The translations under genes were made by a program, and so were the position numbers. This document shows positions 5,347-45,954 of a stretch of DNA of 64,000 nt, piece after piece. The notes beneath the pieces are model-generated. The model saw only the letters and a list, made by a program, of their open reading frames with translations. It made no database searches and was not told the DNA's origin. The stretch is from Escherichia coli. Its GTDB lineage: Bacteria; Pseudomonadota; Gammaproteobacteria; Enterobacterales; Enterobacteriaceae. The number at the start of each line of letters is the position of its first letter. Within the stretch, counting starts at the first letter, position 1. The stretch lies in NCBI RefSeq assembly GCF_016903815.1, contig NZ_CP069973.1; one strand, given 5' to 3'.

Positions 5347-5387
5347 CGCCAGACGCCTCCTTTCTCCATAAGGGGGCGTTTTTTGTG

Positions 5388-6095
5388 CACAGAAAACCCC
5401 CAGCTAGGCTGGGGGTTCCGGAAAGCTTTCAGCTTTGAGCCAGTTATTAAAACCCCTTTTGATTTGTTAAAACACCTTGCGGTCTGGCAACTGCAAGTGT
5501 CAAACAAGAAATCAAAAGGGGGTCCCAATGGGGAACGAAAAGAGCTTAGCGCACACCCGATGGAACTGTAAATATCACATAGTTTTTGCGCCAAAATACC
5601 GAAGACAGGTGTTCTACAGAGAGAAGCGTAGAGCAATAGGCAGTATTTTGAGAAAGCTGTGTGAGTGGAAAAGCGTACGGATTCTGGAAGCTGAATGCTG
5701 TGCAGATCATATCCATATGCTTGTGGAGATCCCGCCCAAAATGAGCGTATCCGGGTTTATGGGATATCTGAAAGGGAAAAGCAGTCTGATGCTTTACGAG
5801 CAGTTTGGTGATTTGAAATTCAAATACAGGAACAGGGAGTTCTGGTGCAGAGGGTACTACGTCGATACAGTGGGTAAGAACACGGCGAAGATACAGGATT
5901 ACATAAAGCACCAGCTTGAAGAGGATAAAATGGGAGAGCAGTTATCGATTCCCTATCCGGGCAGCCCGTTTACGGGCCGTAAGTAACGAAGTTGGATGCA
6001 AATGTCAGATCGTGTGCGCCTGTTAGGGCGCGGCTGGTAAGAGAGCCTTATAGGCGCATTTGAAAAACCTCCGGCTATGCCGGAGGATATTTATT
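5388..6095 (+). mobile_element. IS200 insertion sequence (IS200/IS605 family, tnpA-only); boundaries approximate
   Basis: Contains a Y1/HuH transposase gene; a perfect palindrome AAAACCCCCAGCTAGGCTGGGGGTT at 5392..5416 matches the characteristic IS200 left-end hairpin; kup-rbsD spacer is about 875 bp, far longer than expected for K-12; ends set by the expected ~0.7 kb size, not by exact repeat mapping. Confidence 0.7.
5528..5986 (+). CDS. tnpA: IS200 transposase TnpA (Y1 HuH transposase)
   Basis: 152-aa product from the internal ATG (MGNEKSLAHTRWNCKYHIVFAPKYRR...HIHMLVEIPPKMSVS...); HxH motif (HIHML) present; near-identical to the Salmonella IS200 TnpA as I recall it. Confidence 0.93.
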   Translation: MGNEKSLAHTRWNCKYHIVFAPKYRRQVFYREKRRAIGSILRKLCEWKSVRILEAECCADHIHMLVEIPPKMSVSGFMGYLKGKSSLMLYEQFGDLKFKYRNREFWCRGYYVDTVGKNTAKIQDYIKHQLEEDKMGEQLSIPYPGSPFTGRK

Positions 6096-9148: not shown

Positions 9149-10036
9149 ATGAACATGAAAAAACTGGCTACCCTGGTTTCCGCTGTTGCGCTAAGCGCCA
9201 CCGTCAGTGCGAATGCGATGGCAAAAGACACCATCGCGCTGGTGGTCTCCACGCTTAACAACCCGTTCTTTGTATCGCTGAAAGATGGCGCGCAGAAAGA
9301 GGCGGATAAACTTGGCTATAACCTGGTGGTGCTGGACTCCCAGAACAACCCGGCGAAAGAGCTGGCGAACGTGCAGGACTTAACCGTTCGCGGCACCAAA
9401 ATTCTGCTGATTAACCCGACCGACTCCGACGCAGTAGGTAATGCTGTGAAGATGGCTAACCAGGCGAACATCCCGGTTATCACTCTTGACCGCCAGGCAA
9501 CGAAAGGTGAAGTGGTGAGCCACATTGCATCTGATAACGTACTGGGCGGCAAAATCGCCGGTGATTACATCGCGAAGAAAGCGGGTGAAGGTGCCAAAGT
9601 TATCGAGCTGCAAGGCATTGCCGGTACATCCGCAGCCCGTGAACGTGGCGAAGGTTTCCAGCAGGCCGTTGCTGCTCACAAGTTTAATGTTCTTGCCAGC
9701 CAGCCTGCAGATTTTGATCGCACCAAAGGTTTGAACGTAATGCAGAACCTGTTGACCGCTCATCCGGATGTTCAGGCTGTATTCGCGCAGAATGATGAAA
9801 TGGCGCTTGGCGCGCTGCGCGCACTGCAAACTGCCGGTAAATCGGATGTGATGGTCGTCGGATTTGACGGTACACCGGATGGCGAAAAAGCGGTGAATGA
9901 TGGCAAACTAGCAGCGACTATCGCTCAGCTACCCGATCAGATTGGCGCGAAAGGCGTCGAAACCGCAGATAAAGTGCTGAAAGGCGAGAAAGTTCAGGCT
10001 AAGTATCCGGTTGATCTGAAACTGGTTGTTAAGTAG
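9149..10036 (+). CDS. rbsB: periplasmic ribose-binding protein
   Basis: ORF 9143..10036; signal peptide ([23 protein letters not shown]) followed by a periplasmic binding-protein fold sequence. Confidence 0.95.
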
Positions 10037-10164
10037 TAGTTTTAATCAGGTTGTATGACCTGATGGTGACATAAATACGTCATCGACAGATGAACGTGTA
10101 ATATAAAGAAAAGCAGGGCACGCGCCACCCTAACACGGTGGCGCATTTTATGGACATCCCGAAT

Positions 10165-11094
10165 ATGCAAAACGCAGGCAGCCTCGTTGTTCTTGGCAGC
10201 ATTAATGCTGACCACATTCTTAATCTTCAATCTTTTCCTACTCCAGGCGAAACCGTAACCGGTAACCACTATCAGGTTGCATTTGGCGGCAAAGGCGCTA
10301 ATCAGGCTGTGGCTGCTGGGCGTAGCGGTGCGAATATCGCGTTTATTGCCTGTACGGGTGATGACAGTATTGGTGAGAGCGTTCGCCAGCAGCTCGCCAC
10401 TGATAACATCGATATTACTCCGGTCAGCGTGATCAACGGCGAATCAACAGGTGTGGCGCTGATTTTTGTTAATGGCGAAGGTGAGAATGTCATCGGTATT
10501 CATGCCGGCGCTAATGCTGCCCTTTCCCCGGCGCTGGTGGAAGCGCAACGTGAGCGTATTGCCAACGCGTCAGCATTATTAATGCAGCTGGAATCACCAC
10601 TCGAAAGTGTGATGGCAGCGGCGAAAATCGCCCATCAAAATAAGACTATCGTTGCGCTTAACCCGGCTCCGGCTCGCGAACTTCCTGACGAACTGCTGGC
10701 GCTGGTGGACATTATTACGCCAAACGAAACGGAAGCAGAAAAGCTCACCGGTATTCGTGTTGAAAATGATGAAGATGCAGCGAAGGCGGCGCAGGTACTG
10801 CATGAAAAAGGTATCCATACTGTACTGATTACTTTAGGAAGTCGTGGTGTATGGGCTAGCGTGAATGGTGAAGGTCAGCGCGTTCCTGGATTCCGGGTGC
10901 AGGCTGTCGATACCATTGCTGCCGGAGATACCTTTAACGGCGCGTTAATCACGGCGTTGCTGGAAGAAAAACCATTGCCAGAGGCGATTCGGTTTGCCCA
11001 TGCTGCCGCTGCGATTGCCGTAACACGTAAAGGCGCACAACCTTCCGTACCGTGGCGTGAAGAGATCGACGCATTTTTAGACAGGCAGAGGTGA
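10165..11094 (+). CDS. rbsK: ribokinase
   Basis: ORF 10138..11094; start set at the ATG giving MQNAGSLVVLGSINADHIL; PfkB-family motifs (GGKGANQA; DTIAAGDTFNGA). Confidence 0.94.
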   Translation: MQNAGSLVVLGSINADHILNLQSFPTPGETVTGNHYQVAFGGKGANQAVAAGRSGANIAFIACTGDDSIGESVRQQLATDNIDITPVSVINGESTGVALIFVNGEGENVIGIHAGANAALSPALVEAQRERIANASALLMQLESPLESVMAAAKIAHQNKTIVALNPAPARELPDELLALVDIITPNETEAEKLTGIRVENDEDAAKAAQVLHEKGIHTVLITLGSRGVWASVNGEGQRVPGFRVQAVDTIAAGDTFNGALITALLEEKPLPEAIRFAHAAAAIAVTRKGAQPSVPWREEIDAFLDRQR

Positions 11095-11097
11095 TGC

Positions 11098-12090
11098 TTG
11101 GCTACAATGAAAGATGTTGCCCGCCTGGCGGGCGTTTCTACCTCAACAGTTTCTCACGTTATCAATAAAGATCGCTTCGTCAGTGAAGCGATTACCGCCA
11201 AAGTTGAAGCGGCGATTAAAGAACTCAATTACGCGCCATCAGCCCTGGCGCGTAGCCTCAAACTCAATCAAACACATACCATTGGCATGTTGATCACTGC
11301 CAGTACCAATCCTTTCTATTCAGAACTGGTGCGTGGCGTTGAACGCAGCTGCTTCGAACGCGGTTATAGTCTCGTCCTTTGCAATACTGAAGGCGATGAA
11401 CAGCGGATGAATCGCAATCTGGAAACGCTGATGCAAAAACGCGTTGATGGCTTGCTGTTACTGTGCACCGAAACGCATCAACCTTCGCGTGAAATCATGC
11501 AACGTTATCCGACAGTGCCTACTGTGATGATGGACTGGGCTCCGTTCGATGGCGACAGCGATCTTATTCAGGATAACTCGTTGCTGGGCGGAGACTTAGC
11601 AACGCAATATCTGATCGATAAAGGTCATACCCGTATCGCCTGTATTACCGGTCCGCTGGATAAAACTCCGGCGCGCCTGCGGTTGGAAGGTTATCGGGCG
11701 GCGATGAAACGTGCGGGTCTCAACATTCCTGATGGCTATGAAGTCACTGGTGATTTTGAATTTAACGGCGGGTTTGACGCCATGCGCCAACTGTTATCAC
11801 ATCCGCTGCGTCCTCAGGCCGTCTTTACCGGAAATGACGCTATGGCTGTTGGCGTTTACCAGGCGCTGTATCAGGCAGAGTTACAGGTTCCGCAGGATAT
11901 CGCGGTGATTGGCTATGACGATATCGAACTGGCAAGCTTTATGACGCCACCATTAACCACTATCCACCAACCGAAAGATGAACTGGGGGAGCTGGCGATT
12001 GATGTACTCATCCATCGGATAACCCAGCCGACCCTTCAGCAACAACGATTACAACTTACTCCGATTCTGATGGAACGCGGTTCGGCTTAG
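11098..12090 (+). CDS. rbsR: LacI-family ribose operon repressor
   Basis: 330-aa ORF; N-terminal HTH ([21 protein letters not shown]); last gene of the rbs operon. Confidence 0.95.
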
Positions 12091-28203: not shown

Positions 28204-29748
28204 ATGGCAGACTCACAACCCCTGTCCGGTGCCCCTGAAGGTGCCGAATATTTAAGAGCGGTGCTGCGCGCGCCGGTCTACGAAGCGGCGCAGGTCACGC
28301 CGCTACAGAAAATGGAAAAACTGTCGTCGCGTCTTGATAACGTGATTCTGGTGAAGCGCGAAGATCGCCAGCCAGTACACAGCTTTAAGCTGCGCGGCGC
28401 ATACGCCATGATGGCGGGCCTGACGGAAGAACAAAAAGCGCACGGCGTGATCACCGCTTCTGCGGGTAACCACGCGCAGGGCGTCGCGTTTTCTTCCGCA
28501 CGGTTAGGCGTGAAGGCGCTGATCGTCATGCCAACCGCCACCGCCGATATCAAAGTTGATGCGGTGCGCGGCTTTGGCGGCGAAGTGCTGCTTCATGGCG
28601 CGAACTTTGACGAAGCGAAAGCGAAAGCGATCGAACTGTCACAGCAGCAGGGCTTCACCTGGGTGCCGCCGTTCGACCATCCGATGGTGATCGCCGGGCA
28701 AGGCACGCTGGCGCTGGAACTGCTCCAGCAGGACGCCCATCTCGACCGCGTATTTGTACCGGTCGGCGGCGGCGGTCTGGCGGCGGGCGTCGCGGTACTT
28801 ATCAAACAACTGATGCCACAAATCAAAGTGATCGCCGTGGAAGCGGAAGATTCCGCCTGCCTGAAAGCGGCACTTGATGCAGGTCATCCCATTGATCTGC
28901 CCCGCGTGGGGCTGTTTGCTGAAGGCGTCGCGGTAAAACGCATCGGCGATGAAACCTTCCGTTTGTGCCAGGAGTATCTTGACGACATCATCACCGTCGA
29001 TAGCGATGCCATCTGTGCGGCGATGAAAGACCTGTTCGAAGATGTGCGCGCAGTGGCGGAACCCTCCGGCGCGCTGGCGCTGGCGGGGATGAAAAAATAC
29101 ATCGCCCAGCACAACATTCGCGGTGAACGGCTGGCGCATATTCTTTCCGGTGCCAACGTGAACTTTCACGGTCTGCGCTACGTCTCGGAACGCTGCGAAC
29201 TGGGCGAACAGCGTGAAGCGTTACTGGCGGTGACCATTCCGGAAGAAAAGGGCAGCTTCCTCAAATTCTGCCAGTTACTTGGTGGGCGCTCGGTCACCGA
29301 GTTCAACTACCGCTTTGCTGATGCCAAAAACGCCTGCATTTTTGTCGGCGTGCGCCTGAGCCGCGGTCTCGAAGAGCGCAAAGAAATTTTGCAGATGCTC
29401 AACGACGGTGGCTACAGCGTGGTTGATCTCTCCGACGACGAAATGGCGAAGCTGCATGTGCGCTATATGGTTGGCGGGCGTCCATCGCATCCGTTGCAGG
29501 AACGCCTCTACAGCTTCGAATTCCCGGAATCACCGGGCGCGCTGCTGCGCTTCCTCAACACGCTGGGTACGCACTGGAACATTTCTTTGTTCCATTATCG
29601 CAGCCATGGCACCGACTACGGGCGCGTACTGGCGGCGTTCGAGCTTGGCGATCATGAGCCGGATTTTGAAACCCGGCTGAATGAACTGGGCTACGATTGC
29701 CACGACGAAACCAATAACCCGGCGTTCAGGTTCTTTTTGGCGGGTTAG
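28204..29748 (+). CDS. ilvA: threonine deaminase (biosynthetic)
   Basis: ORF 28201..29748; start at the second ATG giving MADSQPLSGAPEGAEYL (514 aa); PLP-binding region SFKLRGA. Confidence 0.95.
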   Translation: MADSQPLSGAPEGAEYLRAVLRAPVYEAAQVTPLQKMEKLSSRLDNVILVKREDRQPVHSFKLRGAYAMMAGLTEEQKAHGVITASAGNHAQGVAFSSARLGVKALIVMPTATADIKVDAVRGFGGEVLLHGANFDEAKAKAIELSQQQGFTWVPPFDHPMVIAGQGTLALELLQQDAHLDRVFVPVGGGGLAAGVAVLIKQLMPQIKVIAVEAEDSACLKAALDAGHPIDLPRVGLFAEGVAVKRIGDETFRLCQEYLDDIITVDSDAICAAMKDLFEDVRAVAEPSGALALAGMKKYIAQHNIRGERLAHILSGANVNFHGLRYVSERCELGEQREALLAVTIPEEKGSFLKFCQLLGGRSVTEFNYRFADAKNACIFVGVRLSRGLEERKEILQMLNDGGYSVVDLSDDEMAKLHVRYMVGGRPSHPLQERLYSFEFPESPGALLRFLNTLGTHWNISLFHYRSHGTDYGRVLAAFELGDHEPDFETRLNELGYDCHDETNNPAFRFFLAG

Positions 29749-32738: not shown

Positions 32739-33188
32739 TCAATTTATGAGCGATATGGCATTGATTGACTTGATGACTGCCCTCTGTATGTCTGCAACCA
32801 ACTCATGTGGCAAACATTGATTAAGATACCCCCGATAAGTCCTTGCTCTGTTTAATCGGTTTCGACTGACTTGTTGTACCAGGTCGGCTTTAGCCCAACG
32901 TATCTGCTGATCAAAGAAATGCATGTCATTGATAACATTACTGGCTATTTCAACATGCATTCCACGATTTAACTTGTCATGGTCGCGAGTGGTTGATAAT
33001 GGAACGACGATACATGCGTTGCCATTAATTTTTCCGTTGAGCACGACAACCAACCTATTTTTTATCATCTCAGGTGGAATGCGGCCATCGTAATACGTCG
33101 TGCTGAACTGTCCATTCTGGCTAACAGGATAGTTACCAAAGTTGCATTCCAGTATTTCACCAACCTTGGGGCTGAAATTAATCGCCAC
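32739..33188 (-). CDS. yifN: PemK/MazF-like toxin-family protein YifN (standalone, no adjacent antitoxin)
   Basis: ORF 32739..33230; start placed at the GTG at 33186..33188 because a strong Shine-Dalgarno (TAAGGAGAGG) lies 7 nt upstream, giving 149 aa; intrinsic terminator hairpin GCCCGGAAAATCCGGGC at 32644..32660 just downstream on the coding strand; family assignment from remembered annotation and weak motif resemblance. Confidence 0.7.
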   Translation of the reverse strand: MAINFSPKVGEILECNFGNYPVSQNGQFSTTYYDGRIPPEMIKNRLVVVLNGKINGNACIVVPLSTTRDHDKLNRGMHVEIASNVINDMHFFDQQIRWAKADLVQQVSRNRLNRARTYRGYLNQCLPHELVADIQRAVIKSINAISLIN

Positions 33189-43980: not shown

Positions 43981-45239
43981 GTTTTGCGACCATTTCTGTT
44001 ATCGGACTGGGTTACATCGGGCTGCCTACAGCAGCTGCGTTTGCCTCTCGGCAAAAACAGGTGATTGGTGTCGATATCAACAAACATGCGGTTGATACCA
44101 TCAATCGTGGCGAAATCCATATCGTCGAACCTGATTTGGCGAGCGTAGTAAAAACTGCCGTAGAAGGCGGTTTTTTACGAGCGAGCACGACGCCAGTTGA
44201 AGCGGATGCCTGGCTGATTGCTGTACCCACGCCGTTTAAAGGCGATCATGAGCCAGATATGACCTACGTTGAATCGGCTGCTCGCTCCATTGCGCCAGTG
44301 CTGAAAAAAGGCGCGCTGGTGATCCTTGAATCCACCTCGCCGGTGGGGTCAACCGAGAAGATGGCAGAATGGTTAGCAGAGATGCGTCCAGATCTCACTT
44401 TCCCGCAGCAGGTGGGCGAGCAGGCGGACGTCAACATTGCTTACTGCCCGGAACGCGTGTTACCGGGCCAGGTAATGGTCGAGCTGATTAAAAACGATCG
44501 CGTGATTGGTGGTATGACGCCGGTTTGTTCGGCCCGCGCCAGCGAACTGTACAAAATTTTCCTCGAAGGTGAGTGTGTCGTCACTAACTCGCGGACGGCG
44601 GAAATGTGTAAGCTCACCGAAAACAGCTTCCGCGATGTGAATATCGCTTTTGCTAACGAACTGTCGCTGATTTGTGCCGATCAGGGAATTAACGTCTGGG
44701 AACTGATTCGCCTGGCGAATCGCCACCCTCGCGTCAATATTCTTCAGCCTGGCCCTGGCGTGGGCGGTCACTGCATCGCTGTTGATCCGTGGTTTATCGT
44801 GGCACAGAACCCCCAGCAGGCGCGGCTTATCCGTACTGCGCGCGAAGTGAACGATCACAAACCGTTCTGGGTTATCGATCAGGTGAAAGCGGCGGTTGCC
44901 GACTGCCTTGCTGCTACCGATAAACGCGCCAGTGAACTGAAAATCGCCTGCTTTGGTCTGGCGTTTAAACCGAATATTGATGACCTGCGCGAAAGCCCGG
45001 CGATGGAAATCGCTGAACTGATCGCCCAGTGGCATAGCGGCGAAACGCTGGTTGTTGAGCCTAACATCCACCAGTTGCCGAAAAAACTGACCGGGCTTTG
45101 TACTCTGGCGCAGCTTGACGAGGCGCTGGCAACGGCAGACGTGCTGGTGATGCTGGTCGATCATATCCAGTTCAAAGCCATCAGCGGCGACAACGTTCGT
45201 CAGCAATATGTCGTCGATGCTAAAGGAGTCTGGCGCTGA
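43977..45239 (+). CDS. wecC: UDP-N-acetyl-D-mannosamine dehydrogenase
   Basis: 420-aa ORF; NAD-binding GLGYIGLP; start overlaps the wecB stop (ATGA). Confidence 0.95.
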
Positions 45240-45279
45240 TACTGATTACCGTGAATGACTGTTTTGAGGGAGTCACACA

Positions 45280-45954
45280 ATGCCCGTCCGCGCCAGTATT
45301 GAGCCACTAACCTGGGAAAACGCCTTCTTTGGTGTTAACAGCGCCATTGTGCGCATTACGTCTGAAGCACCGCTCCTGACGCCAGACGCGTTAGCGCCGT
45401 GGTCACGGGTGCAGGCCAAAATTGCGGCATCAAATACGGGTGAACTGGATACCCTGCAACAGCTGGGATTCTCCCTGGTAGAAGGTGAAGTTGATTTGGC
45501 GCTACCCGTGAACAATGTCGGTGATAGCGGCGCAGAAGTGGCACAAGAGACAGATATTCCCGCATTACGTCAGTTAGCCAGCGCCGCATTTGCGCAAAGC
45601 CGTTTTCGTGCGCCGTGGTATGCGCCTGACGCCAGCGGTCGCTTTTATGCACAGTGGATTGAAAATGCCGTGCGCGGCACCTTTGATCATCAATGTCTGA
45701 TTTTACGTGCGGCGTCCGGCGCTATTCGCGGCTATGTCTCTTTACGGGAACTCAATGCGACAGATGCGCGAATTGGCCTGCTGGCTGGACGCGGTGCAGG
45801 TGCTGAGCTGATGCAAACGGCGCTAAACTGGGCGTATGCTCGCGGTAAAACAACTTTGCGGGTGGCGACCCAGATGGGCAACACCGCCGCGCTTAAACGA
45901 TACATACAAAGTGGTGCGAATGTAGAAAGCACCGCGTACTGGTTATACAGGTGA
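45280..45954 (+). CDS. wecD: dTDP-fucosamine acetyltransferase (GNAT family)
   Basis: 224-aa [29 protein letters not shown]...; begins only 40 bp after the wecC stop, with no rffG or rffH between them. Confidence 0.92.

Follow-up and report, generated by a model that had tools for sequence, protein, structure and literature searches.

The coding ends of the convergent genes rbsR and hsrA share 35 bp (12056..12090) in the window, the 64,000-nucleotide stretch of Escherichia coli DNA analysed here, and with a probability of about 80% we regard this overlap as a by-product of gene packing and not as a dedicated device. The overlap itself is genuine, conserved and already present in the reference annotation. 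On comparison of sequences across the Enterobacteriaceae, the long tail of HsrA is a lineage-specific extension laid over a tight, family-wide tail-to-tail packing of the two genes. We infer that the overlap has no dedicated regulatory role, and its significance outside its own locus is little.

The rbsR gene lies on the plus strand at 11098..12090, starts with TTG and encodes the ribose operon repressor of 330 aa; it is the last gene of rbsDACBKR (ORF list and RefSeq annotation). The hsrA gene (yieO) is an ORF on the minus strand at 12056..13483 and encodes a DHA2-type MFS transporter of 475 aa. It comes second in the yieP-hsrA operon (PMC11340327), whose upstream gene yieP (13506..14198, minus strand; ORF and annotation) encodes a GntR/FadR-type regulator. 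The ORF list and a direct reading of the sequence agreed on the shared stretch, with the rbsR stop codon TAG at 12088..12090 on the plus strand and the hsrA stop codon TAA at 12056..12058 on the minus strand, where it appears as tta on the plus strand. The hsrA stop is built from positions 2 and 3 of the rbsR codon L320 (CTT) and position 1 of T321 (ACT). The shared 35 bp comprise, for rbsR, its stop, ten complete codons (T321-A330) and two bases of L320 and, for hsrA, its stop, ten complete codons (K466-E475) and two bases of S465. The two frames stand in phase (123:132), in which codon position 1 of rbsR lies opposite position 1 of hsrA, position 2 opposite position 3, and position 3 opposite position 2. 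An earlier note on this DNA had described a 35-bp convergent overlap with the rbsR stop inside the last 11 codons of hsrA. The overlap was borne out by the ORF coordinates, both stops and the RefSeq and MG1655 annotations, and the location of the stop was accurate, with TAG straddling the hsrA codons S465 and K466.

The RefSeq annotation of strain 7/2, to which the window is 100% identical over 2.6 kb, has the identical overlap, and so does that of K-12 MG1655 (rbsR at 3938227..3939219, hsrA at 3939185..3940612). The junction, searched with a 125-nt probe at 95% identity or more, is carried by 5393 of 5426 complete E. coli genomes. The probe matched E. coli 1162C (NZ_CP051659.1) only from window position 12058 on, at two places in the genome, which suggests a rearrangement or insertion breakpoint exactly at the hsrA stop in this strain.

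Both genes are genuine and not chance ORFs, as judged from family profiles and PDB matches. RbsR matched the NCBIfam equivalog NF007743 with 697 bits over residues 1-330 of 330, its Pfam Peripla_BP_3 match extended to residue 329, and the chain named ‘Ribose operon repressor’ in PDB 9ny7 has the same length of 330 aa. For HsrA, the Pfam MFS_1 and NCBIfam NF007799 (459 bits) matches covered residues 13-465 only, and the nearest solved structure was EmrB (8zal). The stretch of HsrA beyond the NF007799 profile coincides with its ten fully overlapped codons, and the end of RbsR lies within its profiles. In most E. coli genomes, hsrA carries the PGAP name ‘multidrug transporter subunit MdtD’ (‘mdtD’), since the protein scores above the cut-off of the NF007799 subfamily (458.6 vs 426 bits). 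In the K-12 record it appears as ‘putative transporter HsrA’, and the MdtD name is likely misleading.

An annotation or sequencing error, with one of the two genes in fact ending earlier and no coding overlap, would be the simplest way to explain the overlap away. Since each gene ends where its first in-frame stop lies, the overlap cannot be an annotation artefact. In addition, strong homology anchors both frames (that of hsrA up to residue 465), thousands of independent assemblies carry the same sequence, and the hsrA frame is open across 40 species. We therefore consider the probability of such an error to be negligible. An alternative C-terminus of hsrA obtained by re-annotation was likewise found to be inapplicable, the 3′ end being the first in-frame stop of a frame anchored by homology to residue 465.

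The overlap's length is not unusual. In the antisense frame of the same phase, the 45 annotated genes of the window showed a stop about every 22 codons, and reading from the 3′ end of a gene in that frame gave a median of 16 codons, with at least 11 codons in 60% of the genes. Hence, the idea that a 35-bp overlap is improbably long was rejected; an antisense run of 11 codons is the chance expectation once the frame has been entered. Convergent overlaps form a known background in E. coli, where Lillo & Krakauer 2007 (PMC2174442) counted 58 of them. Their lengths have a mode of 4 nt, which arises from the tetramers TTAA, CTAA, TTAG or CTAG, the phase (123:132) is the commonest among those of at least 5 nt, and their usual origin is mutation or bypass of a stop codon (PMC2174442). 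The window has eight convergent pairs, two of which overlap, namely rbsR/hsrA and ilvA/ilvY. The ilvA (plus strand) and ilvY (minus strand) genes share 4 nt at 29745..29748 through joined stop codons, a typical minimal convergent overlap, and asnA and viaA, which are also convergent (309 and 314), are spaced by 4 nt.

To place the junction in its family, one genome per species was scanned, which gave 80 Enterobacteriaceae loci. The two genes were convergent and end to end in 80/80 species, with a gap of at most 3 bp. From the exact stop positions, seven junction states were distinguished, with overlaps of -3, -2, 4, 9, 24, 35 or 53 bp. A gap of 2-3 bp was seen in Phytobacter and Kluyvera, and the 4-bp overlap of the stops in Buttiauxella, Franconibacter, Siccibacter, Raoultella, Pluralibacter, Trabulsiella, Yokenella, Pseudocitrobacter and others. 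Kosakonia has a 9-bp overlap, and Kosakonia oryzendophytica one of 24 bp. The 35-bp overlap was found in Escherichia, Salmonella, Citrobacter, Intestinirhabdus, Enterobacter and Leclercia, and the 53-bp overlap in Lelliottia and Huaxiibacter; beyond E. coli, these two states account for 35 and 5 species, respectively. The length of HsrA follows the junction state: the protein has 461-467 aa with overlaps of at most 9 bp, 472 aa in the one species whose genes share 24 bp, and 475-477 aa in the 35- and 53-bp forms. The tail extension of the E. coli protein, residues 466-475, is encoded at 12059..12088 on the minus strand and is absent from the orthologues of 461-467 aa. The rbsR stop was TAG in every species with the 35-bp overlap. 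In the 53-bp form (loci L030, L033, L034, L036 and L044, from Lelliottia, Huaxiibacter and an Enterobacter MAG) this TAG is changed to TCG or TTG, and RbsR gains six codons antisense to hsrA and reaches 336 aa, so that both RbsR and HsrA are extended.

The long and short forms differ by a net 1 nt. When 82 junctions were anchored on the stop, this difference was located in the first 1-3 nt past the rbsR stop, and alignment to the short-form orthologues places the frame change of the window at approximately 12089..12093 on the minus strand. As an example, the short-form locus L049 reads CAC AAA GCT TAA where the long-form locus L051 reads CAC AAA CCT AAA CCG. The change shifts hsrA out of the 4-nt phase and into phase (123:132), where the frame stays open until the TTA provided by rbsR L320-T321 (CTT ACT).

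A neighbour-joining tree of the two genes, built with the junction left out, was used to address the polarity of this change. The outgroups in the tree, Buttiauxella, Franconibacter and Siccibacter, have the 4-bp state, and therefore the short form with its 4-nt joined stops is probably ancestral. The long-form clade of Escherichia, Salmonella and Citrobacter received a bootstrap support of 79-82%, and that of Enterobacter, Leclercia and Lelliottia 100%. Joint monophyly of both long-form clades was recovered in 1-8% of the bootstraps of this tree, in which the deep nodes are weak. The grouping of all long-form species into one clade was thus unsupported. With the long-form clades placed apart in this tree, the extension may have arisen once or twice, or reversions may have occurred.

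Taken together, the by-product reading would run as follows. The rbsDACBKR and yieP-hsrA operons appear to have abutted without a spacer throughout the Enterobacteriaceae since before the family diversified, and the ancestral junction was likely a 4-nt overlap of both stops (TTAA, CTAA, TTAG or CTAG). A net 1-nt frame change beside the old hsrA stop, in the lineage or lineages that gave rise to Escherichia, Salmonella and Citrobacter as well as Enterobacter, Leclercia and Lelliottia, would have brought hsrA into a different antisense frame. Translation of hsrA would then run for ten more codons, up to the TAA supplied by L320-T321 of rbsR. The last residues of RbsR, which lie within LacI-type family profiles, would largely dictate the shared sequence, and the extra residues of HsrA would form a hydrophilic tail past the last membrane helix, presumably in the cytoplasm. 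The tail and the position of its stop may now be weakly constrained by purifying selection, and both transcripts presumably terminate within the opposite coding region, either through Rho or diffusely. On this account, the folded end of RbsR dictates a short add-on tail of HsrA, which then gains a weak constraint of its own.

It could be argued that the ten extra residues of HsrA are translated without any selective value, and that their conservation mirrors the C-terminus of RbsR. The extra residues lie outside the transporter family profile, orthologues of many genera do without them, and the length of the tail is what chance predicts. Residues 468, 469, 470 and 474 are freely variable (N/T/S, R/P/H, V/A and S/Q/P/R, respectively) and vary with synonymous or conservative changes in rbsR, all of which agrees with a neutral tail. 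However, the synonymous sites of rbsR point the other way. Because of the (123:132) phase, every synonymous third-position change in rbsR alters a second codon position of hsrA. Parsimony changes were therefore counted at the 4-fold degenerate third positions of rbsR on the neighbour-joining gene tree. In the 40 long-form species, the seven 4-fold sites in rbsR codons 320-329 showed 2, 1, 6, 0, 7, 10 and 3 changes, with a mean of 4.1, while the 132 upstream 4-fold sites averaged 8.5 changes; for these seven sites only, the permutation p was 0.0015 and the codon-family-matched p was 0.0003. In the 40 short-form species, the same codons showed 10, 5, 13, 8, 15 and 15 changes, and the mean of 11.0 was comparable to the upstream mean of 10.3 (p 0.67). 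The synonymous sites of rbsR in the overlap are thus about twice as conserved, and only in the species that bear the overlap.

The positions of the near-fixed bases are also at odds with a neutral tail. The third base of L320 was T or C, both of which keep the hsrA stop, in 40/40 long-form species, whereas it was G in 17, C in 11, T in 7 and A in 1 of the short-form species. Nearly invariant third bases were those that set the hsrA stop (T38/C2), the terminal E475 (T39/C1) and E/K473 (T37), and the near-fixed bases of the overlap maintain these three features and P467. Loss of the hsrA stop would add 15 further codons, and loss of the rbsR stop would extend RbsR by 5. Since fewer synonymous changes were found in the overlap, and only where the overlap is present, the tail would be weakly constrained; in this small test (seven sites, neighbour-joining gene tree) the data hint that the HsrA tail and its end point are under weak purifying selection. 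We consider a tail of no selective value rather unlikely on these grounds. A constraint at the RNA level instead of the protein level could yield the same synonymous pattern.

No terminator-like site was detected by a consensus scan near 12056-12090 on either strand. Over 11000-13700, the scan returned four sites, all of them away from the junction, and this number equals the expectation from shuffled sequence. There were no inverted repeats in 11950-12250, neither 3′ extension had a folding advantage over shuffled sequence (z -1.47 and -0.32), and no Rfam family was matched at the junction. A bidirectional intrinsic terminator between rbsR and hsrA was rejected, as no G+C-rich hairpin with A and T runs was observed. 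Modest stretches with C in excess of G occur 100-240 nt past each stop and are compatible with Rho loading, though not diagnostic of it. Since the junction has no intrinsic terminator, each transcript must run into the opposite gene, and because each mRNA must reach its own stop, the two RNAs are complementary over at least 35 nt when both operons are transcribed. The claim in the earlier note that the transcripts of each gene necessarily extend into the other therefore holds. It also agrees with published data: ExcludonFinder (2025, PMC12288877, Table 1) has rbsR-hsrA among 165 convergent pairs, each with overlapping transcripts in no fewer than half of the 58 MG1655 RNA-seq samples. The overlap of the two transcripts has thus already been published as a convergent excludon. 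Transcriptional interference, which the earlier note had raised, or antisense control of rbsR or hsrA is possible but drew no support from the sequence or from the papers found.

The transcript overlap opens the question of whether the spacer-free arrangement has been kept as a functional excludon, in which transcribing one operon would hold down the other. Under ribose induction of rbsDACBKR, for instance, polymerases would enter hsrA in the antisense direction and lower the output of yieP-hsrA, either through polymerase collision or through RNase III cleavage of the RNA duplex, at least 35 bp long. Such a role would fit the unavoidable transcript overlap and the place of the pair among the 165 convergent excludons of MG1655 (PMC12288877), the lower co-expression of excludon pairs as a class in single cells (PMC12288877), and the retention of the genes end to end without a terminator in 80/80 species. 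However, our literature search returned nothing specific to this pair on interference, RNase III cleavage, reciprocal expression, Rho or bicyclomycin, or Term-seq, nor on yieO, and no mutational evidence was found. With values from -3 to 53 bp, the coding overlap shows no conservation of its exact length. Closely packed convergent pairs are frequent, with the 58 overlaps of E. coli (PMC2174442) and two in the window, and ribose use has no known functional connection with HsrA, which is an uncharacterised transporter (PMC11340327). We consider a functional excludon improbable, and the by-product reading is preferred.

Against the by-product reading, the lack of a spacer across the family could itself reflect selection for transcript overlap. 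That the absent spacer and terminator were selected as a switch, in which ribose-induced rbs transcription silences the YieP-HsrA module or the reverse, seems to us very doubtful. We would give equally little credence to the suggestion that such a switch works through collision and cleavage of duplex RNA, with the constraint in the overlap acting both on RNA pairing and on the HsrA tail. If an excludon of this kind were real, ribose availability would be linked to an uncharacterised efflux-type transporter, and nothing points there yet.

Several other features of the window were observed. A copy of IS200C lies at approximately 5384..6092, with tnpA at 5528-5986 and a match to Rfam STnc490 at 5395-5518. 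It is inserted about 37 nt into what in K-12 is the 166-nt kup-rbsD spacer, just past the kup terminator hairpin, and 128 nt upstream of rbsD are kept despite the insertion. In the K-12 annotation, the small RNA RbsZ covers the 3′ end of rbsB and the rbsB-rbsK spacer, corresponding to approximately 9913..10146 of the window, and no Rfam family was matched at that position. A CDS for a PemK/MazF-family toxin is annotated at 32739..33188, between ppiC and rep. In the enterobacterial common antigen cluster, wecC is followed by rffC after 40 nt (45239..45280), and the rffG and rffH genes of K-12 are absent; this wecC-rffC junction is contiguous in just 116 of 5426 complete E. coli genomes.

The rbsR/hsrA pair resembles the excludons described in PMC12288877 in being convergent, in having an unavoidable transcript overlap and in its short (negative) intergenic distance. 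The excludon concept rests on mutually exclusive expression and RNase III dependence, and the likeness of rbsR/hsrA to it concerns the transcript overlap alone; moreover, the overlap of this pair includes coding sequence and not UTRs only. Within the window, the closest counterpart is ilvA/ilvY, which is also a convergent pair of the last gene of an operon and a regulator gene with common stop regions and no spacer. Unlike rbsR/hsrA, it has only 4 nt in common, and therefore no amino acids are encoded on both strands. Compared to the convergent overlaps surveyed in PMC2174442, rbsR/hsrA likewise lies on opposite strands with common 3′ ends and in the commonest phase for overlaps of at least 5 nt. 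Its probable ancestral state is the typical 4-nt tetramer of joined stops in that survey, and it would have arisen in a similar way, by one gene running on to the next antisense stop. It differs from the surveyed overlaps in that the stop appears to have been bypassed by a 1-nt frame change and not by a point mutation in the stop codon, and in the reciprocal extension of rbsR by six codons in Lelliottia and Huaxiibacter. It differs further in that a single pair displays seven states and all three phases across genera, which makes rbsR/hsrA a tidy, textbook-scale case of convergent overlaps arising and drifting within one bacterial family.
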